A stretch of DNA of 64,000 bases from an uncultured Desulfospira sp. (GTDB lineage: Bacteria; Desulfobacterota; Desulfobacteria; Desulfobacterales; Desulfobacteraceae). How positions within the stretch are numbered: the first letter of the stretch is position 1; every line of letters starts with the position of its first letter. The notes below the pieces were generated by a model. The model made no database searches. It was given only the letters and a program-made list of their open reading frames with translations, and had not been told where the DNA came from. This document shows positions 12,345 through 27,210 of the stretch, in pieces. The stretch spans positions 2,912,001-2,976,000 of the forward strand of contig OY760175.1 in NCBI GenBank assembly GCA_963663165.1, given 5' to 3'. The position numbers were made by a program, and so were the translations under genes.

Positions 12345-13487
12345 CTACTCCCCTTTTAGCTGGGCCAGCTTCTTTTTTTTGGCCGCAAGGTCTTGTTCGT
12401 GGCTATAGATATATGTTGACTCTTTTTTAGAAGACCAGAAATCGTAAAACGCTTCTGCCCGGCCACTTTCAATATCATCTTCCAATTTCCGGATCTGATA
12501 TTCAAGCCTTGCGATTTCCGATGCAGTGGAGTCTGTTTCCGCGGTCCGGGCTGTCTGGGACCAGGTCTCACCGGATAGGACATTGTCTTCATCCAGGCGG
12601 CCTGCGGATGATGAACCGTCTGAATCATTTGAGTCCGAATCCGTTGAATCTGAGCCGGATGAATCGCTGGAATTAGAAGACACCAGGCCGGAATCTGAAC
12701 TATCCGTACTATCATCTGACGAACTTGCGGCCCGGGTCTGTGTCGAAGACTTTTTATCACCTGTTTTCAGTGCGGAACCAGTTCCTGTGGAATCTGTGCC
12801 GGAATGGGCACGGCTTTTCCCGGTAAGATACCGGGAAGATCTGCCGGGCGAATCCTGGGCCAGATGGCCTGATTCACGGGTATCATTGGAATTTGGATTT
12901 TTGTCAGCCGCCCAAGGGACTGGCCGGCCCCCATTGGCCTGATCAGTGGGGGGTGGCCCCATCCCGGGAGGGACAGGCGAGCCAAAGCGCTGGCGACTTT
13001 TTCCGGATTTTGACCGGCCCTTTTGATCGGGCGGGCCCGCGGCACTGCCGGGGGCCTGCCCCTTTTTGCTGACCTTTTCAGGGGGAAGCCAATTATTTTT
13101 TATGCTTTTGCCGGCCGGGCCGGTACCAACGGGGCTGAACGCATCGGCATCCGTGTAGGCGAAGCATCTGGCTGATTCAAAGTAATCATGGCTGTAAACC
13201 ACAGCATAATTATACCCTTTGAGCAATTTTTCCAGGACAGCTTCGAGGGGGACCCGGTCAAATGACAGGTCCTTTGAATAGTCGATAAAGGTTTCGGTAA
13301 TATAAATTTCAACATTGGCCTGATCGGCCAGGTCTATCAGAACCGATGCAACAGAGGCCTGGTTCTGATGGATACTCACAAGTCCCTGGTCACAGCTTAT
13401 ATTCAAAGGCCGGGCCAAAACCGGAACATCCGCCGCCCAGACAAGCAGGACAGCGGCAAACCATAGAATTTTAAACCCATCCTTCAT
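12345..13487 (-). CDS. Secreted protein: secretin-N/STN-like domain, Ser/Asp-rich linker, coiled-coil end
   Basis: Signal peptide; ASVASVLIDLADQANVEI...VPLEAVLEKLL; low-complexity S/D tract. Confidence 0.65.
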   Translation of the reverse strand: MKDGFKILWFAAVLLVWAADVPVLARPLNISCDQGLVSIHQNQASVASVLIDLADQANVEIYITETFIDYSKDLSFDRVPLEAVLEKLLKGYNYAVVYSHDYFESARCFAYTDADAFSPVGTGPAGKSIKNNWLPPEKVSKKGQAPGSAAGPPDQKGRSKSGKSRQRFGSPVPPGMGPPPTDQANGGRPVPWAADKNPNSNDTRESGHLAQDSPGRSSRYLTGKSRAHSGTDSTGTGSALKTGDKKSSTQTRAASSSDDSTDSSDSGLVSSNSSDSSGSDSTDSDSNDSDGSSSAGRLDEDNVLSGETWSQTARTAETDSTASEIARLEYQIRKLEDDIESGRAEAFYDFWSSKKESTYIYSHEQDLAAKKKKLAQLKGE

Positions 13488-16275: not shown

Positions 16276-16514
16276 TAACGGCCACGGGCCGCCCTGGTTA
16301 TCCAACCAAGCACCGCCCACAACAAATAATGAAACGGAAGATACCAGCAACGGTAGACTATAAATTGGGCACCGCAGGTGCTTCGCCCTCTTGTCTCTTG
16401 TTTCTTGTCTCCAGTTTCTTATAACGGCCACGGGCCGCCTTGGTTATCCAACCAAGTATCGCCCACAACGAATAATGAAAGTCTTATCACGCTGTTAGTG
16501 AGACTTTCATATAA
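16276..16514 (-). repeat. Family A tandem: long form (16276-16424) plus short form (16422-16514)
   Basis: Two cores in head-to-tail arrangement sharing TAA at 16422-16424. Confidence 0.92.
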
Positions 16515-16542
16515 AAATGTAGGGGGATTAGGCTGAAGGGAT

Positions 16543-18822
16543 TCAGCCTTCAGCCCCATCCCATTGGGCATACCGGTATCCGGGAGCGTAAAAAGACAGG
16601 GTTACCTCCCCGGGTCGGATGCCGGCGATTTGCCGCCCCATGTCATCAAAGGATATGTCATGGCTTAACCGGTCCGGGGAAAATGAATGGAAATGAAACA
16701 CATCAGCGGCTGACGGATCTTTGTAACTAAGGGTAATCACGCTGTCTTCGGGCAGGGCTGACAGCGTGACGGTAAACCCGGTCTGTTTCTGGATAACGTC
16801 CATCTCGACGGATTTGGGACAGGCCTTCCAGATTTCCAGGGAGGGGTCCCCCAGAACATGGTATATGGCAAAATGGCGTTTTATATTGATGCCGTCCCCC
16901 CAGTACCAGACCGGCAGGTATGCCTTGGCATAATTGAGGATATCGCCGATCCGGCTGTACCGGCCGGCGATAGGGGACACCGGGGGGGCGTTCTGTTCCG
17001 CATAAACCGGCAATATCCCGGGCCACAGGGCATCGAACAGGGCTTTCATCATCACGTCGCTGTACCAGGCACCGGCTTTGCGGGTGGCGGCGATCAGGGC
17101 CGGCACCCGGCCGGCCCTGATCAGGGCCTCGCTAAAGGCCCCCCGGGGGTTGGCGCTGTCAAAACATCCGGAAAGGCAGTTCAGGCTGAAAACAATTGAC
17201 GGTTCCTTGATGGTCCGGGTTCCCCGGTCCCTGGTTTCCTGGTCCATACCTAGGATATCCTGGTTGGTGAATCTGGGAATCTCCCATCCGTTGATATTGC
17301 CGTGTCCCCGGTGGGCCATGATCAGGCGGCCTTGCTTAAACGCGTTGAGGACGCTTGTTCTGGCCTGGTCCTCTGCCTGGAATTCAACGGTGCGGCGGTT
17401 GGTGCGCTCTATCTGGGCAATGGGCTGGCCGTTACAAAAACAGGTTGTCCGGTCATCCTCTTTAACAAAAATCTCCTCTGGTCTTAAATTAAATTGTTCC
17501 AAATGGTCATCAATGGATATCAGGGTTTTGACATAGTTGGTCACCGACCGTTCGGGATCCACCGCCTCAACCCCTTTTTCCAGTTCTCCGGCACAGGTGA
17601 TATTCTGATAATAGCCTGGATCCAGAGGCGGGTGCTGCTCATATTCAATGATTTGACGGATGACGGCCATGCCGGCACCATGGCCGTCATTGTCTGCTTC
17701 CAAAGGGATTCTGCCCACACTTACCCACGGAAACGAAAGCCCGGTTGCGGTTTCGTCTTCCCGGGTGGAATAATAATAATCCGTGAGTATGGTTTCGCCG
17801 GAAAGCCGGTCATAGGCGGGATCCGGGAAAATTTTCGGCTGAATATACCCCGTGTCCCCCATCAGCAGCAGATACCGAAGCCTTGCCCCGGGTGTGTCCC
17901 GGCATGTTTTGATATACGCCCTGAGGCGGTCCGGATCATCGGCCATGTTGCCGGCTGCCTTGACGGCCGTGGCCAGACCTTTCTGATTTTTCCACTTTGC
18001 CAGGGTAAGGGCCTCTTGTTCAAATGCCTCATGGTAAATGATCAGCAGTTCTGCCGCCGTGACATCCGCAGGTTCTTTGGGCGTTAACGTGAACCGGGGG
18101 CCGGGGCCTGAGCCCCGGGTCAAAGCCCCGGGCGGGTCTATCGGCGGTAATTTGGGGTTGATCAGCATGTTGTTGTAAAGGCCGTCAAGGGGCGGCAACG
18201 GGGCGGCCCTATCCAAAGGGACCATTGTCAACGGCATTTCAGCCTCAAGTTCGGCACAAAAGGTTAATTTGTCTTTCTGGGGGGTATACTGAAAGGGGGT
18301 GACATGAATGAGGATCACATGCTGCCCCTGGATTTCAAAAGAGCCTTCGGCCATGACCCGGTGTTTGGGAAAATGGTCATCATCGCCAAACCCGTCATAT
18401 CCCTGATCGTAATCATGGGCCTGGCCGGCATCCACTGTCCAGTTATCCTGGGAGGTCATTACCCAGGCATCTGCCGGCAGGCCTTTTTCCATGATCGCCA
18501 CATCAACGATGGGGGTCTCAGTAATGTCTTCAGGCAGGGGCACCCGGCAAGGTCCCGGCACACGGACATACCGGCCAAAGGACGGGATCAGCGGCTGTTT
18601 GTTCTTGCTGATATAACCGCATCCGGGAATACCGAGCTGAATCACATCTTTGGCTCTCTGGTTCTTAAACTGGACAGAGACATGGGAGGTCTGGTACCCC
18701 GAAAAAGCCACCGTAAACTTCAGGATCACGCCTTGGGCATGGCTGTCCACTATGTTGACTTGCCTGACAACAGGCCTTAAATCGTTTCCATTTCCCCCGA
18801 AAGCGACGGTTCTCACACTCAT
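16543..18822 (-). CDS. C25 family (gingipain-like, clan CD) cysteine peptidase with propeptide
   Basis: Propeptide-like PLIPSFGRYVRVP and VTPFQY; YLLLMGD, TDYYY, VGRIP; catalytic HRGHG and NCLSG; YHVLGDPSL. Confidence 0.9.
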   Translation of the reverse strand: MSVRTVAFGGNGNDLRPVVRQVNIVDSHAQGVILKFTVAFSGYQTSHVSVQFKNQRAKDVIQLGIPGCGYISKNKQPLIPSFGRYVRVPGPCRVPLPEDITETPIVDVAIMEKGLPADAWVMTSQDNWTVDAGQAHDYDQGYDGFGDDDHFPKHRVMAEGSFEIQGQHVILIHVTPFQYTPQKDKLTFCAELEAEMPLTMVPLDRAAPLPPLDGLYNNMLINPKLPPIDPPGALTRGSGPGPRFTLTPKEPADVTAAELLIIYHEAFEQEALTLAKWKNQKGLATAVKAAGNMADDPDRLRAYIKTCRDTPGARLRYLLLMGDTGYIQPKIFPDPAYDRLSGETILTDYYYSTREDETATGLSFPWVSVGRIPLEADNDGHGAGMAVIRQIIEYEQHPPLDPGYYQNITCAGELEKGVEAVDPERSVTNYVKTLISIDDHLEQFNLRPEEIFVKEDDRTTCFCNGQPIAQIERTNRRTVEFQAEDQARTSVLNAFKQGRLIMAHRGHGNINGWEIPRFTNQDILGMDQETRDRGTRTIKEPSIVFSLNCLSGCFDSANPRGAFSEALIRAGRVPALIAATRKAGAWYSDVMMKALFDALWPGILPVYAEQNAPPVSPIAGRYSRIGDILNYAKAYLPVWYWGDGINIKRHFAIYHVLGDPSLEIWKACPKSVEMDVIQKQTGFTVTLSALPEDSVITLSYKDPSAADVFHFHSFSPDRLSHDISFDDMGRQIAGIRPGEVTLSFYAPGYRYAQWDGAEG

Positions 18823-18869
18823 TTTATCCCCCTGCTGCCATTAAACCGGCATGTTCCGGAAACCTTCGA

Positions 18870-19262
18870 TTACCACTTCACACAGACCCTTCTGCCGCCG
18901 ATTCGAAAGCAGAAATTGTCCAGGGGAATAGCCAGAGGCAAAATTTCACCGACTTCGCATTCTACATTTGGAACAGCGTCACCGTTGGTGTCCTTAACCT
19001 CCACTGTCCAGCCGTCCTGAATTGAAAAATGAATTTTCCTTTTTGAGTTAACGGGGCTGAGCGCCTTGCCGTTGACCGTCACCAGGGGGAAATAATAGTC
19101 GTCGCCCTGGGCCAGATCATTGCACTCAAACTGCTTTGAAATCCACGACGTGACCATCTCGAAATCAATTTCAACGCCGTTTTTGTCTTTGATGGCAATG
19201 TCATAATCCTGGTTGGGATCAATCCCAATGCTGACCACGCGGCCGATGTAATCCATAGACAT
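18870..19262 (-). CDS. Small acidic protein with C-terminal cationic Cys-x8-Cys tail
   Basis: AAAGGAG RBS; 130 aa ending NFCFRIGGRRVCVKW. Confidence 0.8.
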   Translation of the reverse strand: MSMDYIGRVVSIGIDPNQDYDIAIKDKNGVEIDFEMVTSWISKQFECNDLAQGDDYYFPLVTVNGKALSPVNSKRKIHFSIQDGWTVEVKDTNGDAVPNVECEVGEILPLAIPLDNFCFRIGGRRVCVKW

Positions 19263-19288
19263 AATGTTTCTCCTTTATTTAATGGTTT

Positions 19289-19414
19289 GTGTTTGGACGA
19301 AAAGTCACCTGCCTGCTGCGTTGCAGGAAAATTTGCAATCCTCACAACCCTAATGGTTGCTCCGGTTGCAAATTTTCCTGCGCCTTGCATCTGGGCAACT
19401 TTTCGTCCAAACAC
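19289..19414. mobile_element. MITE-like palindromic element, family B (126 bp)
   Basis: Terminal inverted repeats GTGTTTGGACGAAAAGT / ACTTTTCGTCCAAACAC; inner IR GCAGGAAAATTTGCAA; end fragments at 7558 and 34780. Confidence 0.85.
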
Positions 19415-19500
19415 GGACAGATCTTCGTTCAGACATTATATAACTCACTGAAGGGCCGGACCATGCCGCCCTAAAAGCCTTCAGCCTGAACCCCTTCAGC

Positions 19501-22500
19501 CTAAAAGTGCCATGAGATGTTGACAAACACCTGACGTTCCGGATTGATCCTGGGGTTAAAGGGATCTGTGTCCTGAAATTCAAATGTGTTGTCAAAAATA
19601 TTGGTCCCGACAATGGAGACACTGCCCCCGGACTCCTGAAACCGCCACCCGATCTGGGCATCCACCACCCAGAACTGATCCGATATCCCGTTACCGGTTG
19701 CCCCCCGGTAATCCTGATGAAAGTATGAGGCCTTTAACCGGGCCAGAAACCCTGAGGGATGGAAAAACCCAAACCCCAGGGGGATGCGGTGGGTTTTGAT
19801 ATTGAGATAGGCTTCAGGGTCCGGGACATCGTCATCGGATTTTTGCCGTTCAAAAAAATACTCGGCACTCACCGCGACGGTCTTGCCAATGGGTCGGAAA
19901 ACATAGCACCGATATACGGTTTCTTCCCATTGATACCGGATCACATCGCCAAAGTTGAATTCATCAAACCACAGGTATAGCGGGGTGTCGTTTTCCCGGT
20001 GTAAAATTTCCATGCCGGCATACAGGCGGCCTGAAAACCGATGGTCCACCGCCATGCCGTACAGATTAGACACGGTGCCGGTATTGTCACTGTAAAATTG
20101 GTTAAACCCGGCCACCTGGGTGGGCTCTATGGTCTGGCCCGAGACAAGGGAGCGGACAACGGTTCTCGCCATGGCCCCGCGCACGGTGGTCTGTTCATTG
20201 AGGGTCCAGGTCAGGCCGATTTTAGGGTTGAGTTTATCCTCATCCGCTTCACGGCTGTCTATTGAATCCAGGCTCAGCCCCAGGCGCCAGACCATATTTT
20301 CAGGATACCGGCAGGACAGATACCCATACCCGTTGATATGCTCCGTCTTTGAATCCGATGTTTCCAGGTCACTTGAACGCAAAAGTTCACCCAAAATCTC
20401 ATGGGTGACCCGGGTATCCACACGGCTTTTCTCATCTGAATCCAGATGATAATAACCGACCCCGGAAATAAGGCTTATCCCGTTCTTTTGGAACCGGTGC
20501 TGGACTTCGGCCAGAACGCTGTCCTGGTCCAATGAAGCCTTGCTGTCCATCTCGGATTCAATGCCAAAACCAAACCCGTCCAGCTGGGTCTGGGCCGCAC
20601 TGAAGGTGGTGGTATAATCGGCCCGGTTAAAGACAGCCGACCCTAAAATCCGGGATTCCCGGCTCAGTGTGTGGGATACCCCGAGCCGGATTTTGCGGGT
20701 TGTCTCCTTCTGCCTTAAGGTGTCATGAATCGGGGAGGTTTCAAGCAGCTGCTCCAGAAACCCAAAAGTCCGGTCATCATACCGGCCCTCTAGTTGAAAG
20801 CTTGTTTCCGGGGTCAGGGCCATGTGGAAAAATGCATTGGCCATGTCTTTTTCAAGATCGTTATTTTCCCCGAAACCGTCGGTGCCATAATGATACTGGC
20901 CCAGGCTGTAAGCAATATTGTCCCGCAATCCATAATGAACGATCTCCTCTCCCCGGGTGTTGTTGCTGCCGGCCACACCGTTGACCTGGAAATCCAGCCG
21001 GTTTCGTTCAAACAAAGCGGTGTATTCATTCAAAGAGGCCTTGCTGGGCCATGTCCCGCCAAGGATGCCGGCAGATGTCGCATCTTCCAGCTGGGGCTGG
21101 ACAGGATTGGCCGTCACCGGCGATAGCAGCTGGGCCTGAAGCAGCTCGCTGACCCGGGCAATTTCATGGCGGGGCAGGACATCATAGGAATCGGCCAGAA
21201 ACCGATGGGCCGAATAATTATCCGGATCACTGGCAAGGGATTTATACCCCTCCAGCAGGGCCAGCTGCCCGAATCCCAGTACATCATAGATCCTTGCAAG
21301 GCCGGCACTGCGGGAGGCCAGGTCCTGATCCAGCAGGAACCTGGACCGGTAAACGGCCCGGTTGTCGTTGAGTTCAATGGATTTCTGGAGATCTTCCAAT
21401 GCCGCCACCGGCCGGTTGTCTGCCTGTTTTTGAAGGGCACTGTACAACCAGGGGGTGGGGTCATTGGGATCCAGGCTTTTGGCGGCATTGAATTGTTTTT
21501 CGGCCAGCCCGCCCTGATTTTCTTCATCAAAGGCCTTTCCCAGATAACTGCGAACCAAAGCATTGTCGGGATCAAGGCCCATAGCGGTTTCCATCTGCTG
21601 CCGGCCTTTGGCCAACTGGCCCCGCCGGATCAAGGCAAGCCCGAGCCCCAAACGGGGCAAGGGGTCGGTCTGGTCCAGGCGGATGGCCGTTTCAAAAGCG
21701 GCCATGGCCTGTTGGATCCTGGCGCCGGTAAGGCGGGTATACCCGAGAACCGTCTGGGTCCGGCTGATGTCAGGATTTAAGGCCACGGCTTTCTGGGCTG
21801 AGCTCCCGGCCGGTTCAATGTCGCCAAACGCCAGTTGAAGCTGGGCTAAACGGGCCCATAAAAGGGCGTTTTCCGGGTCCAGGGCCACGGCTTTTTTCTG
21901 GGATTCCAGGGCCCCTTTCAGGTCAAACACCGCCTGACGGGCACAGGCCTGCGCCGACCAGGCAACGGCCAGGTCCGGATCATGGGAAACCGCGTTTTCT
22001 GAAAGATTCACGGCGGCTTCTTTCCGGTTTTGTGCCGTGGCGATAATGGACAGCAGGGACAAGGCCAGGGCCGGGGCACTTGGCCTCAGGCGTTCAATAT
22101 CCGCTTTGGCCTTTTCCACACGGCCGGCAAACAGGAACAGTTCGGCCCGGTAGGCATAAAAGAGCGCTGAGCGCTGATGCATGGAAATCCGTTCAAGGAC
22201 CTCAACGGCCTCCACCAGCCGTCCGACCCGGCGAAAGGCCATGGACTGCTGAATAATTTCCCGGGCAGGCAAGGAAAATTCGCCAAGGCGAAAATCGGAC
22301 AGCGAAGGATAGTAAAGCGCCCATTGGACCGCATCCTTGGGTCTGACCATGATCAGCCTTGCCGGGGCCTTTCCTTCCAGGGCCCGGGCGGATTGGCCCG
22401 GTTCAAGGGCCAGCCGCCCCTGGGCATTGGCCACATGGACCCGCCCTGAATAAACCGTGACCCGGGACTGGCCGGGCAGAACCGTGACCAGAAATTGTGT

Positions 22501-22908
22501 GCCGTCAACGGCGGCGGTGGCAAAGGGGGTGTCAATCTTCAAATCCATGGCCTTTTGGCTGAAAAACAGGGCAGCTCCCTGCAAAAGCCTTGTCAGAAAA
22601 GGCCGGTCTTCCTCAATCCCTGGCAGGGAAAGCAGGGCATTCTGGTCCAGTTTAACCGTGGCCCCGTTGTTTAATTTGATGGTGACAGAGCCCAAGGCCC
22701 CGGTCCGGACCATATGGCCGGGACAAAGCATGGTATCCGGCCGGGCAGGATACCATGGGCCATCCGCGTTATCCTTTGTCTCCACCATCCCCTTTATGGC
22801 CAGCACCTGGGAGGGATGGTCACAAGGATACCCTGCCGTTATGCCTGTACATAAGACAACAACAGATATAAACAGGCCAAGCCTGGCTGATCTTTTTTTA
22901 GAAGCCAT
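19501..22908 (-). CDS. Outer-membrane receptor: FecR domain, TPR array, TonB-receptor-like beta-barrel (NsrA-like)
   Basis: Signal peptide, DTPFATAAVDGTQF FecR motif, many TPRs, barrel ending VNISWHF. Confidence 0.88.
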   Translation of the reverse strand: MASKKRSARLGLFISVVVLCTGITAGYPCDHPSQVLAIKGMVETKDNADGPWYPARPDTMLCPGHMVRTGALGSVTIKLNNGATVKLDQNALLSLPGIEEDRPFLTRLLQGAALFFSQKAMDLKIDTPFATAAVDGTQFLVTVLPGQSRVTVYSGRVHVANAQGRLALEPGQSARALEGKAPARLIMVRPKDAVQWALYYPSLSDFRLGEFSLPAREIIQQSMAFRRVGRLVEAVEVLERISMHQRSALFYAYRAELFLFAGRVEKAKADIERLRPSAPALALSLLSIIATAQNRKEAAVNLSENAVSHDPDLAVAWSAQACARQAVFDLKGALESQKKAVALDPENALLWARLAQLQLAFGDIEPAGSSAQKAVALNPDISRTQTVLGYTRLTGARIQQAMAAFETAIRLDQTDPLPRLGLGLALIRRGQLAKGRQQMETAMGLDPDNALVRSYLGKAFDEENQGGLAEKQFNAAKSLDPNDPTPWLYSALQKQADNRPVAALEDLQKSIELNDNRAVYRSRFLLDQDLASRSAGLARIYDVLGFGQLALLEGYKSLASDPDNYSAHRFLADSYDVLPRHEIARVSELLQAQLLSPVTANPVQPQLEDATSAGILGGTWPSKASLNEYTALFERNRLDFQVNGVAGSNNTRGEEIVHYGLRDNIAYSLGQYHYGTDGFGENNDLEKDMANAFFHMALTPETSFQLEGRYDDRTFGFLEQLLETSPIHDTLRQKETTRKIRLGVSHTLSRESRILGSAVFNRADYTTTFSAAQTQLDGFGFGIESEMDSKASLDQDSVLAEVQHRFQKNGISLISGVGYYHLDSDEKSRVDTRVTHEILGELLRSSDLETSDSKTEHINGYGYLSCRYPENMVWRLGLSLDSIDSREADEDKLNPKIGLTWTLNEQTTVRGAMARTVVRSLVSGQTIEPTQVAGFNQFYSDNTGTVSNLYGMAVDHRFSGRLYAGMEILHRENDTPLYLWFDEFNFGDVIRYQWEETVYRCYVFRPIGKTVAVSAEYFFERQKSDDDVPDPEAYLNIKTHRIPLGFGFFHPSGFLARLKASYFHQDYRGATGNGISDQFWVVDAQIGWRFQESGGSVSIVGTNIFDNTFEFQDTDPFNPRINPERQVFVNISWHF

Positions 22909-23048
22909 ACTGTCCCTTCTTTTTTAAAATGTCAGAATGATGTCAGAGATGGTTGCCAGTCAGAATGATACCGGGCTGTTTTCAGATTGTTGCGTTCAAG
23001 GATAGGGGTCATTGTATGAGAAATGACACGGTCTTGCAACCTAAAATA

Positions 23049-23078
23049 CGTAGGGGCGATTCATGAATCGCCCCTACG
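23049..23078. repeat. GTAG-type REP palindrome
   Basis: Perfect palindrome CGTAGGGGCGATTCATGAATCGCCCCTACG. Confidence 0.85.
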
Positions 23079-23122
23079 CCCCTGCAAACCCGGTCTCGCT
23101 TCTTCCCGTCTCCGGTTGCCGC

Positions 23123-25354
23123 TCATTTTCCCACCGCAATCCGCCCGTCCCATTCCCTGTCCGGCGCTGTTTTTTTATAGGCCTCACACAGCCCGAGATA
23201 GAACAGGGACGGGCCGTCATTCTCCCGGCAGGCCATGCATTCCGTGAACCCGTGTGCGGCCTTGTCAAAGTCGCCTTGTTTGAAAAGATCAAGGGCCTTT
23301 TCGAACATACCGCAAAGGGTTTCGTCCTGTGGGGTTGACTCGCCGGTACGGCCAATTAACTCGTAGACGGGAAGGGGCGCGGATTTTCCGGCCAGAACAA
23401 AATCCCCCAGTTTACGGCTTAAGATCCCGTCCACCCCGGACAGGACGTCCCCTGAAACCAGAACCCAGGTCCCCAGTTTCTTGTTCAGGCTTTCCAGGCG
23501 GGAGGCCGTGTTAACGGCATCTCCCATGGGGGTATAATCATAATGGTCGATGCTGCCGATATTTCCGTAAAAGAACTGGCCGGAATGAATCCCGATGCGC
23601 GTGGGCAGAACCGGGGCATTGGGCTGCAAATGGTGCTGTTCAACCGCACTGATAATGTCCAGGGCCGCAAGGCAGGCCTTTTTGCACAGGTTTTGATCAG
23701 GGGACAGGCCGACCCACAGCACCAGCATCCCGTCACCGACAATTTTGGACAAAATACCGCCGTGCCGGGCAATGGGTTTGGAAATTTCACCATAGTATTG
23801 GTTCATCAGCCGTCCCAGCTCCATGGGAGATACGGTTTCCGAAAGGGCTGTAAAGTGCTTTGCATCGGTGAACATGCAAGCCCCATGGACCATCTGGCTG
23901 CTATTCCGGATATCGGATACATTTTCCACCAGTTGATCCACCAGATGATCCGGGACATAATAGCCAAACACCTGGCGGATTCTGGCCCGCTCTTTTTTAA
24001 TCTGCCGGTTCTTCCATAAAACCGATAGAAAGAATGCTGCAGGCGCCTGTATGATAATGGGAATCACCAATGGATACCAGGCCCCTGAACGGCTGAATGC
24101 AAAAAAGGAGACGGTCAGCCAGGCGCCGCTTAAACCGGATACGGCCAAGGCTGAGACACGGGAGGAAGGAAACCAGCAGATCAGGCCCAGCAAGATCCCC
24201 CAGGCCAGAACAAACCACTGGTGATGCCCCATGGACAGACGTTGGATCTGGCAGTCCTCCCAAAAATTTGAAAAGGCCGTGGCCAGTATTTCAACCCCGT
24301 TTAAATCAACCCCGTCAGACCGGGAAAACACCGTGGGAAAACTGTCTTTCTGCTTGGCGGAAATAAGCTCGGAAAGGCCGACAAACACCACCGTTCCCGG
24401 CGGTATGTCCCTATCCATTGCCTCAACGCAGGACAGGGTGGCAAATGAGCCCGACGGTCCGTAAAAATTCAGGTACCGGGTGTTGCCCTGATATAATTTA
24501 ACAAGGGTTTTAAGGACCTTTCTTTTTCGGGGGTCCGCCTTGTCCGGCGGCTGCTTTTCCAGGTCCTCCAAAAGGAGTTGAAATTGATCCGGATGGGTGT
24601 CAAATAAATTTTTTACCCCGCGTATCCGGGTTTCGATCCGGTCAGAGGGCATATGGCCGGCATGGGTGTGAAGCAGCTTTTCTACGGCATCCGGGTCAAT
24701 TTTTCCCAACAGGCGATAAAAATCGCCATGATCCTGCCGGGATAAAAAATGAACCAGGATTACCGGCAGGGTGGGCCTGCCGTCAAGATCGGGTTTAAAG
24801 GTCCAGTACCGGCTGACCTGGCGCGGTGTCTTGGGCAGGGCAAACGGAGCACATGCCGCGGCATTTTGCCTGAGAACGGGAATCACGGGAAAAAACTTCC
24901 GGGCGGACAGCCCGGTTATCCGGCCGGACTGGTCCCTGAGACGAATCATTTCAAAGTCTTCATGCAGCAGAACGTTTCCGGCCTTTTGAATGGATTGGGC
25001 CAGGATGAGATCTTCTTGTTTTCGGCCCTCATGCTTAAAACTGACATCAAAGCATATGGCCGCTGCCCCATTACCGGACAAATGGTCAATCAGTCCGGCC
25101 AGAAAGGCCCTGGGCCATTCCGGGGTTTCAGACAAAGAATCCCCGCCCATGCGCTTGTCAAGGCTTACAATCAGGACGTTGGAAGGCGGCGGAACCGGCC
25201 CCCTTAGTTTGAACAGGAGGCCAAGGCCGTATCTTTCCTCTAATCCAAGCCCTCCTAAAGGGCCGGCGAAGAGCCCTAAAACGGCGGTAAACGCGCCCAG
25301 CAAGACGATGCGGGTAAGGTGCCGGCCCATGGAATTTCCCAAGATGCTCCCCAC
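23123..25354 (-). CDS. CHASE2-domain class III adenylate cyclase
   Basis: WPRAFLA/FDVSF/NGVEILA CHASE2 motifs, 3 TM, MFTD, KIVGDG, DYTPMGDAVNTASRLE (K/D pair indicates ATP specificity). Confidence 0.93.
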   Translation of the reverse strand: MGSILGNSMGRHLTRIVLLGAFTAVLGLFAGPLGGLGLEERYGLGLLFKLRGPVPPPSNVLIVSLDKRMGGDSLSETPEWPRAFLAGLIDHLSGNGAAAICFDVSFKHEGRKQEDLILAQSIQKAGNVLLHEDFEMIRLRDQSGRITGLSARKFFPVIPVLRQNAAACAPFALPKTPRQVSRYWTFKPDLDGRPTLPVILVHFLSRQDHGDFYRLLGKIDPDAVEKLLHTHAGHMPSDRIETRIRGVKNLFDTHPDQFQLLLEDLEKQPPDKADPRKRKVLKTLVKLYQGNTRYLNFYGPSGSFATLSCVEAMDRDIPPGTVVFVGLSELISAKQKDSFPTVFSRSDGVDLNGVEILATAFSNFWEDCQIQRLSMGHHQWFVLAWGILLGLICWFPSSRVSALAVSGLSGAWLTVSFFAFSRSGAWYPLVIPIIIQAPAAFFLSVLWKNRQIKKERARIRQVFGYYVPDHLVDQLVENVSDIRNSSQMVHGACMFTDAKHFTALSETVSPMELGRLMNQYYGEISKPIARHGGILSKIVGDGMLVLWVGLSPDQNLCKKACLAALDIISAVEQHHLQPNAPVLPTRIGIHSGQFFYGNIGSIDHYDYTPMGDAVNTASRLESLNKKLGTWVLVSGDVLSGVDGILSRKLGDFVLAGKSAPLPVYELIGRTGESTPQDETLCGMFEKALDLFKQGDFDKAAHGFTECMACRENDGPSLFYLGLCEAYKKTAPDREWDGRIAVGK

Positions 25355-25378
25355 TTGTTTTTAACGGTTGAACAACGG

Positions 25379-26416
25379 TTATTGGCCCAGGTAGGTTTTG
25401 GGGTTCTCGTTGGCTATTTTCCAGAATAAATCTTCGCCCAGGGCATACCGCAGATCTATGGACAGCCGTTTCTCCGAGTATTGTTCACACTCAGCCATAT
25501 AAAAATCAGACCCGAACAAAACCTTATCCAGCACATCGTTATTCTGGAGCAGCATTTTTAATAATGGAACATTCTCAGTCAGGTTAAACACTGTATAGGA
25601 GATATCTGTATACAAATTCGGATATGCGCGGCTTTTGATCATTTCCAGTATTTTCTGAAGCCAGGTTGATGCCGCCTGGTTCCGGGGAAAATCCAGATGC
25701 TTTTGCCATTCGCCGCTGCCGCCGAAATGGGCCAGGCAGATTCGAAGTTCAGGGTATGCCTTCATCACGGTTTGGTACCGGTCCGGATCTGCCAGGGCAT
25801 GGGCCGCCTGGGGGCTCAGCGCTTTGGAGGTCGCTGTCCCGGGAGAGCAGTGGGATAAAAGGGGGATATCCTTTTCTGCCATATAGGGGTATATCCGGTT
25901 CATCAAGACCTCATGGTCCGGGCTGTAGCCAAGGGGCGGGTAGATTTTAACCCCTTTGAACCCGTGATCCTCGACCAGGGTGCGCAGCCGGTCAAGGGCA
26001 TTGTTCCGTCTGGGTTCGATATGGGCAAAGGGAATCAGGATATCCTTGTAATCTTCCTTCTTTGAAAGCCTTGCCAGTTCGGCATGCTGCCCGTCAATGT
26101 CCTCAACAACGCTGCCCGCCCCCATAAAGGCCATATCCATGGGAAGGATAACAAATCTGGTTCCTGTAGGATAATATCCCATTAACTGCTTTAAATTCCC
26201 TTCCTGGGTTTCCCTGTATGCGGATTTCAAGAATGCCGCGTACCGGTTGATTTTATCGTTTTTTGTCCAGGGGACGATCCCTTTCATGATGCCGCTTAGA
26301 CCGGCCCGCAAATATTGATTTCGTATGGCGGCAACCAGACGGAACGGAAAGTAGCCGTCCGGAAGGTTTTCATGGGTAAAAATATGCGCATGGCAATTGT
26401 AAATCACACGATCCAT
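25379..26416 (-). CDS. Amidohydrolase family 2 metal-dependent hydrolase
   Basis: HAH, GVKIYP, LAHFG, YTDIS, LFGSDF. Confidence 0.9.
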   Translation of the reverse strand: MDRVIYNCHAHIFTHENLPDGYFPFRLVAAIRNQYLRAGLSGIMKGIVPWTKNDKINRYAAFLKSAYRETQEGNLKQLMGYYPTGTRFVILPMDMAFMGAGSVVEDIDGQHAELARLSKKEDYKDILIPFAHIEPRRNNALDRLRTLVEDHGFKGVKIYPPLGYSPDHEVLMNRIYPYMAEKDIPLLSHCSPGTATSKALSPQAAHALADPDRYQTVMKAYPELRICLAHFGGSGEWQKHLDFPRNQAASTWLQKILEMIKSRAYPNLYTDISYTVFNLTENVPLLKMLLQNNDVLDKVLFGSDFYMAECEQYSEKRLSIDLRYALGEDLFWKIANENPKTYLGQ

Positions 26417-26487
26417 TAAAGCCTCCTTTAGCGGGTTTGCGGCGTGAATATTTTTTTGGCGTTTTACCGTGGCCGTCTAATTTTTTT

Positions 26488-26639
26488 GTAACTATTCAGC
26501 TAATGCTGAAAACTAAACAAAACCAGGGGCCGTAACTGCTCATCAGTGCTTCATATTTGTTTAGTCAGGACTTCGTAGCATACTTTTGCTATGTGAGAAG
26601 GCCTGAATGAGCGAAGATGGGGCACTGCTGAACAGTTAC
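26488..26639. mobile_element. MITE family C (152 bp) with 8-bp target-site duplication
   Basis: TIRs GTAACTATTCAGC / GCTGAACAGTTAC; ATTTTTTT on both flanks; second copy at 33105. Confidence 0.9.
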
Positions 26640-26750
26640 ATTTTTTTTAAGAACGGGGAACCCAGCCGGCCGGGATATGTAAGGCAATCAGAGGTTGCAA
26701 TAATTTTTGTTTAACACACCTGCCATGTTAGGGACAAGCGGAATTTCCGC

Positions 26751-26868: not shown

Positions 26869-26939
26869 CCACTTGTTGACATTCCCCCAAGCTTTGGCTA
26901 TGGTACCCCGGGCCTGAAAATGTCAGGTCAAATTTGTTT

Positions 26940-27090
26940 TTGTTCTCAGGGCGGGGTGAAATTCCCCACCGGCGGTATCCCGGAGCAATTCTTCCGGGGA
27001 GCCCGCGAGCGCTTTGCAGCCATCTGCGAAGGCCAGCAGACCCGGTGAGACGCCGGGGCCGACGGTTACAGTCCGGATGAAAGAGAATAA
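26940..27090 (+). ncRNA. FMN riboswitch (RFN element)
   Basis: CTCAGGGCGGGGTGAAATTCCCCACCGGCGGTA...AGCCCGCGAGC...GCAGACCCGGTGAGACGCCGGGGCCGACGGTTACAGTCCGGATGAAAGAG, directly upstream of ribB. Confidence 0.97.
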
Positions 27091-27210
27091 TTACGGTACG
27101 CATTCTAACCAAAGCCGTCGGCCGTTAACAGCCGGTGTACGGTTTTGGGTTTTCCGTTTTTTATTCCCCCTGATTCATGACGGTTATGATTACTTTTAAG
27201 GAGATGTATC

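Follow-up and report, generated by a model that had tools for sequence, protein, structure and literature searches.

The 64,000-nucleotide (nt) stretch of contig OY760175.1 from an uncultured Desulfospira sp. (GCA_963663165.1, positions 2,912,001 to 2,976,000; hereafter the window) carries a conserved unit of three genes, which encode a CHASE2 nucleotide cyclase, a FecR-TPR-barrel receptor homologous to NsrA of Sinorhizobium meliloti and a small partner protein with a C-terminal Cys hairpin. A first-pass annotation had seen in this place five co-oriented genes, including those of an amidohydrolase and a C25 peptidase, and had proposed a self-contained signalling system equipped with its own ligand precursor and maturation protease. 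The conserved unit is of three genes, not five; the C25 peptidase and the amidohydrolase are local additions, shared only with a genome of the same genus. Whether the recurrent, unnamed small gene encodes the ligand of an NsrA-CyaK-type system is for us an evenly balanced question.

Loci were compiled from receptor matches in genome samples and from the best 80 of at least 586 confirmed metagenome stretches. From 134 loci, the window included, two with short receptor fragments were dropped, and the remaining 132 formed 121 clusters at 85% identity; 12 clusters with less than 600 bases downstream were excluded, leaving 109 in which the first gene after the receptor to have a ribosome-binding site was classed by eye. 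This gene encodes a small Cys-tailed protein in 74 of the 109 clusters (among them the window's own and one whose gene stops at a TGA before the tail) and a longer secreted protein in 21. The cyclase gene lies directly upstream of the receptor gene in 61 of the 83 clusters with enough upstream DNA; among the other 22 it is found elsewhere in the locus in nine and was not detected at the threshold used in 13. Loci L031-L034 (more distant receptors or a contig end) stand outside the count of 109, and the three with distant receptors have no small Cys-tailed gene. The type of partner follows the receptor tree (FastTree), the signal-less label changing 19 times compared to a shuffled mean of 38.4; the window receptor forms a long branch among the receptors with small partners. 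The first-pass annotation had staked its proposal on the small gene and the protease recurring beside the receptor/cyclase pair in other genomes: the small gene came through this survey, because 74 of the 109 clusters carry it, while the protease does not generally accompany the pair (see below).

The small partners, of about 60-185 amino acids, end in a tail composed of (N/S/D)-P-x-C, an aromatic strand, a Gly turn, a second aromatic strand and a final Cys. This pattern was found in 29 of 50 family members versus 14 of 970 intergenic small open reading frames (ORFs) of the window genome. Leave-one-out profiles, drawn from an alignment built once from all rows, recovered 36 of the 50 members at E<0.05, and a search of 1.84 billion representatives with a tail profile gave 45 clusters, of which 44 measure 68-185 amino acids (P0071, a tandem repeat, was left out). 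No known family scored over the cut-off in the partners searched (58 with Pfam, 11 with NCBIfam), bar a collagen repeat in one. Several long secreted partners, judged by eye, either have a comparable aromatic hairpin with a Gly turn in their N-terminal part or end in the same tail. Partners are tandem or internally duplicated at L099, L118, L120, L196 and L026 and in P0066 and P0091. In seven relatives a TGA occupies the position of the expected last Cys, with a second stop within two codons, and in two others the TGA takes the place of the first Cys and the rest of the tail follows normally; selenocysteine is the likely residue at these positions. Most of the loci concerned (L087, L090, L093, L108, L114, L129, L222, L116 and L159) share a short downstream sequence. 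In 43 of 115 loci, versus 1.5 expected from shuffles, an extended Shine-Dalgarno-like motif with no obvious ORF lies no more than 90 nt past the stop codon of the receptor gene (L067, L068, L028 and L073 are examples); it may possibly stabilise the partner mRNA.

The window's 130-amino-acid protein is the first gene product after the receptor, is small, and carries at its C-terminus a Cys-x(6-10)-Cys element that includes a Gly turn. A ribosome-binding site precedes its ORF, and a copy with 92% identity differs by 19 synonymous and 10 non-synonymous codons. On the tail profile it ranks first of the 970 intergenic small ORFs. Homology searches with the full protein yielded one match, none in the Atlas and no paralogue in the genome, and its AlphaFold model has a predicted local distance difference test value (pLDDT) of 36.9. 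By eye, it may hold two copies of the N-terminal strand motif of the family. Because its profile scores are low (given below), its membership rests on position and tail motif, and it is treated here as a divergent family member.

In the model of the receptor (mean pLDDT 86.6), residues 30-190 form FecR and 190-600 the TPRs; a short segment (600-635) comes next and then, at 637-1134, a barrel of about 22 strands. The top PDB hits of the barrel in Foldseek are TonB-dependent receptors with 10-14% identity; the N-terminus of the receptor is hydrophobic in a simple hydropathy test. Pfam and the model thus bear out the earlier description of a FecR-TPR-beta-barrel outer-membrane protein. Comparison to NsrA, as annotated on pSymB, revealed distant homology in FecR, TPR and barrel (pairwise profile E 6e-50), with 25% identity in the N-terminal half and an E value of 2.5e-14 (38.7 bits) for a barrel-only profile. 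A tblastn search of the receptor against the plasmids gave nothing, though NsrA is present there; the homology is visible only by direct or profile comparison. The cyclase is about 27% identical to CyaK over the matched stretch, and the assignment of the two genes to a CyaK-NsrA-type pair therefore holds. The predicted surface loops of the barrel are variable (0.28-0.44 in five loops) and TPR2 is conserved (0.83). The barrel contains 71 Asp/Glu versus 47 Lys/Arg, and the tail of the small protein has a charge of +3; for NsrA, acidic barrel loops have been proposed to bind the basic signal (PMC7529298, as far as its accessible part goes).

A hydrophobic N-terminus was found by hydropathy in 24 of 81 small partners. 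The 130-amino-acid protein and the C25 peptidase have none in a simple hydropathy test, which is not a signal-peptide predictor, in agreement with the earlier remark that neither shows an obvious signal peptide. In pairs of sister receptors (L091/L109, L106/L028, L094/L088), the partners are homologous but one has a signal peptide and the other lacks it; the target of the partner therefore likely lies outside the cytoplasm. Lysis as the release route of signal-less partners would be a guess, which fits what the accessible part of PMC7529298 describes for NsrA-CyaK: a response to cell extracts and to uL2, a basic protein that has no signal peptide.

We propose, with confidence and doubt in equal measure, that the hairpin protein binds the receptor and switches the cyclase, and that the C25 peptidase, as a local addition, may trim or destroy it. 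The small protein would reach the outside or the periplasm through Sec where it has a signal peptide, and by lysis or another route in the signal-less majority, that of the window included. Outside the reducing cytoplasm its two Cys (apparently selenocysteine in some relatives) would close the hairpin, the barrel would bind the closed hairpin, and the TPR and FecR parts would relay the change to CHASE2. The cyclic nucleotide, here predicted to be cyclic AMP (cAMP), would act via CRP-, BTAD- or GAF-sigma54-type regulators encoded elsewhere, and the local C25 may trim or destroy the small protein.

The contact between partner and receptor, which the first-pass annotation had suggested be examined by co-prediction, was modelled with the last 50 residues of the 130-amino-acid protein and residues 200-1135 of the receptor, using custom alignments. 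The pair passed the mark, with a run contact agreement of at least 48% and a partner pLDDT of at least 50; this mark is reached by 116 of 157 solved pairs and by 2 of 215 mismatched pairs, and scores of 0.60 or less comprise 18 solved pairs and both mismatches. This supports tail-receptor binding weakly. Several observations weigh against a ligand role. The co-folding score, 0.53 versus 0.04 for the best control, lies in a range in which a call is more often wrong than right unless binding is likely beforehand. Covariation of tail and barrel is weak: over 42 loci the tail varied slightly more in step with the barrel than with the TPR, with a partial r of 0.115 (p 0.043), the sole one of 10 tests below 0.05. 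The 130-amino-acid protein reaches 3.4 bits against the profile of the whole family and 7.1-8.9 bits against those of the tail (E 9 and 2.5; ranks 41 and 15 of 25,814 ORFs). No partner gene was found in 14 of the 109 receptor clusters, and no small Cys-hairpin gene stands beside nsrA-cyaK in S. meliloti. When hydropathy was scored over a wider range, 55 of 80 partners have no visible export route, and no in-frame upstream hidden signal was found. Gene adjacency, finally, fits a cargo, plug or output role equally well.

The identity of the messenger was approached through the cyclase residues. The window cyclase has the catalytic residues D497, D541, N615 and R619 and the specificity pair K537/T608, present also in the L016 copy, which we take to be an adenylyl-type pair; the corresponding pair of CyaK is Lys and Ser. 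A pair of the K537/T608 type occurs in none of 74 relatives (at least 38% in the catalytic domain, near-duplicates included), 49 of which have Asp, Asn or Gln together with Arg at the two base-specifying positions. Because the adenylyl pair is present here and in 0 of 74 relatives, cAMP is a reasonable product to predict for the window cyclase and not for the rest of the clade. The Asp/Asn/Gln plus Arg pair is found in most cyclases of the clade (L067-L226); its equation with the Pycsar uridylate cyclases could not be established from the accessible part of PMC11224242. Genes encoding CRP, cNMP-BTAD, MalT-like and GAF-sigma54 proteins and class II phosphodiesterases recur near the modules of the relatives. 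A CRP-type receiver is absent from the window module, the best candidates elsewhere in the genome being a CRP-like (32%) and a GAF-sigma54 (48%) protein.

Alternatively, the small protein could be cargo or output, which the barrel exports, assembles or anchors, or which the cyclic nucleotide induces, the receptor sensing something else, as NsrA senses the foreign uL2. TPR-plus-barrel proteins are often exporters. The barrel here has only a short plug-like segment, the extra ribosome-binding motif of the leaders fits high expression, and in S. meliloti the Clr targets of unknown function beside cyaD1 are dispensable for perception (accessible part of PMC5498481). Against this, most partners lack a signal peptide and so would not reach the barrel from the periplasm by Sec, and the constant pairing with a CHASE2 cyclase together with the FecR domain fits sensing; we hold a cargo or output role to be unlikely. 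Quite unlikely is a resident plug or inhibitor that keeps the receptor off until its oxidation or proteolysis triggers the system, nearby peptidases (C25, C13, S8, S1) removing it. It would agree with the weak co-folding pass, with the Cys pair and its apparent selenocysteine substitutions, and with the scattered unrelated peptidases near relatives; however, a signal-less protein has no known route to the receptor of its own intact cell, and peptidases are rare as neighbours.

The C25 peptidase and its prodomain score over their Pfam cut-offs. His507 and Cys549 align with the gingipain dyad; of 64 relatives, 62 have the His and 63 the Cys, so the motifs are indeed intact, as first noted. With a PorU score of 50.7 against a cut-off of 420 bits and no signal peptide by hydropathy, it is not of the gingipain/PorU type secreted by the type IX secretion system. 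Its clade (700-790 amino acids; closest relative P0003, 43%) is also found in Theionarchaea, Bacteroidetes and Thermoflexales records. A profile of the 64 relatives matched in none of the 140 other receptor regions (1.6 Mb in all, with some overlaps and near-duplicates), and neither did the amidohydrolase, which has 1011 relatives of its own. In a class sample of 401 genomes, partly incomplete, the receptor was present in 41, the C25 clade in nine and both in three, two of which belong to the genus of the window while the third has them on different contigs; without this genus the numbers are 39, seven and one of 399, compared to about 0.7 expected. A phylum sample, also of partly incomplete genomes, has the receptor in 11, C25 in two and both in the window genome only, and 14 further receptor-bearing genomes contain no C25. 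Both genes were hence rejected as conserved members of the module, the peptidase on the count of 0 of 140 regions and no genome-level association with the receptor, the amidohydrolase on the same regional count and its many relatives.

For a survey of neighbouring genes, 101 of 178 and 71 of 103 ORFs listed downstream were scanned with Pfam, as were 10 selected ones, with follow-up BLAST; the scans left out partners, duplicates, CHASE2 proteins and ORFs that looked like shadows. A signal-less C13 peptidase lies immediately behind the hairpin gene in G766 (L078), L026 has a convergent S8 peptidase by motif reading, and L077 and L194 have an S1-like cassette beside a GAF-sigma54 gene. A peptidase is co-oriented next to the small gene in 1 of the 47 small-partner clusters with 3 kb downstream. 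The cassettes (L077:396-2298 and L194:12586-14486) encode a signal-less NAL1-like serine protease and a 305-amino-acid unassigned protein, divergent from the activator and adjoining the module.

In six of the eight other genomes with this C25 clade, the peptidase gene lies tail-to-tail with an ORF of 73-85 amino acids ending in Asp-Tyr (one of the other two contigs ends early and one locus differs), in what is the usual home cluster of the clade. The cluster resembles those of ribosomally synthesised and post-translationally modified peptides (L045:7082-17033 in G303, also L046, L048, L049, L050 and L227) and encodes a B12 radical SAM protein, the signal-less C25 facing the small ORF, a second radical SAM protein, a class III cyclase-AAA protein and a DDxxD protein that by eye resembles isoprenoid synthases. 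The small ORF belongs to no Pfam or NCBIfam family, its Nif11-type label being an impression only, and the cluster is absent from the window genome. A peptide-processing role of the clade is plausible by analogy, and its recruitment to the module possible, because the clade sits by a precursor-like gene and L078 has a C13 peptidase after the hairpin gene.

That the C25 acts on the small protein at all appears doubtful. Its elevation to a dedicated maturase, which would cut a hairpin peptide from a pro-protein in a self-contained four-gene relay, draws on the start of its gene immediately past the small gene, on both products being signal-less, on the intact dyad, on the precursor-like ORF beside its relatives and on the C13 peptidase of L078. 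The hairpin of the 130-amino-acid protein contains three Arg and one Lys, and a gingipain-like specificity would therefore cut inside it; the S1 pocket of the C25 could not be aligned. As a general maturase the peptidase fails the conservation test in the receptor regions, in the genome samples and in the 47 clusters alike, and even as a local arrangement we give this reading little credence. Of the system first proposed, the ligand candidate thus recurs and the accompanying protease does not. A still wider scenario, in which a cytoplasmic protein released by lysis serves as a widespread Gram-negative self-signal, its Cys or selenocysteine hairpin closing outside the cell, fitting a strain-specific barrel and raising the cyclic nucleotide in neighbouring kin, with signal-less clan CD peptidases (C25, C13) recruited independently in this lineage and in G766 to free the hairpin and the messenger switched back to cAMP here, is in our judgement very unlikely.

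If the hairpin protein binds and switches its receptor, the cognate gene beside most NsrA-like receptors would be a short, synthesizable candidate ligand that offers dozens of natural pairs for swap tests. In the accessible sources the only described signal of NsrA is a host ribosomal protein, and many NsrA-like receptors belong to free-living bacteria. The window locus is bench-friendly: given the ordinary adenylyl residues of the cyclase, one should be able to use a standard cAMP reporter, and a candidate processing enzyme is on board. The locus further leads to a signal-less, undescribed C25 clade that is associated with small precursor-like genes.

All five ORFs are real and stand on the minus strand where first annotated (16,543-26,416; Table 1), separated in 5' to 3' gene order by gaps of 24, 214, 238 and 47 nt; contigs of run X1 are identical to the window across the five genes. 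The full set in the same order was found only in an uncultured Desulfospira metagenome-assembled genome (L016), with protein identities of 88-92%, and a third genome of the genus (G002) had no match for the receptor or the C25.

Table 1. Features of the module and its borders (window coordinates).
Feature	Position	Strand	Basis and remarks
Amidohydro_2 protein, 345 amino acids	25379-26416	-	Pfam; large widespread family; accessory
CHASE2 + Guanylate_cyc class III nucleotide cyclase, 743 amino acids	23123-25354	-	Pfam; core gene 1
FecR + TPRs + weak barrel match, 1135 amino acids, distant NsrA homologue	19501-22908	-	Pfam, model, profile; core gene 2
Signal-less partner, 130 amino acids, no family; acidic body, basic C-terminal Cys-x8-Cys hairpin; candidate ligand	18870-19262	-	Core gene 3
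Propeptide_C25 + Peptidase_C25, signal-less, gingipain family, 759 amino acids, H507/C549	16543-18822	-	Pfam; accessory
Long hairpin repeat, like a miniature inverted-repeat transposable element, between receptor and small gene	19289-19416	.	About 106 genome places; shortened in relative; incidental
Flavin mononucleotide (FMN) riboswitch ahead of a divergent, presumably ribB-like gene	26938-27092	+	Upstream border, outside module

The intergenic hairpin between receptor and small gene was rejected as a regulatory RNA of the module, being a dispersed repeat. It is one of four such repeats that flank or interrupt the module, the others lying at 16290-16520 (about 311 genome places), 23040-23090 (about 11) and 26480-26650 (about 87). 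A promoter scan remained at chance level (10 versus 7.8). Further along the window, a minus-strand gene (12345-13487) that comes after those of a cardiolipin synthase and a zinc phospholipase C encodes a secreted-looking protein of 380 amino acids, whose N-terminus is STN-like and which contains a long stretch rich in Ser and Asp.

The first-pass annotation knew of no description of this combination, and the literature searched, in which few subscription papers and no supplements were covered, likewise described neither the hairpin partners nor this C25 clade. Similarly to the gingipains RgpB and Kgp and to PorU (PDB codes: 1cvr, 4ief, 4rbm, 6za2), the C25 has a prodomain, a His/Cys catalytic domain and a short C-terminal domain; unlike them it lacks a signal peptide by hydropathy and stays far under the PorU cut-off. 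In Campylobacterota, transfer-spread clusters combine a CHASE2 adenylate cyclase with FecR outer-membrane and TPR proteins and a phosphodiesterase; FecR and TPR are on separate genes there, and the accessible part of the source mentions neither a small partner nor a peptidase (PMC9239204). The closest parallel is drawn with the NsrA (SMb20775)-CyaK/CyaD1/CyaD2-Clr cascade of S. meliloti (accessible parts of PMC7529298, PMC13001267 and PMC5498481), in which a FecR-TPR-barrel gene likewise adjoins a CHASE2 class III cyclase, all three receptor parts being homologous, and the adenylyl-type Lys of CyaK is kept in the window cyclase. The window differs in its reversed order, with the cyclase first, in having no CRP gene adjacent to the module, and in the small Cys-hairpin gene that follows the receptor: where the signal described for NsrA, in the parts of these sources available, is a plant ribosomal protein, the window has a self-encoded candidate.

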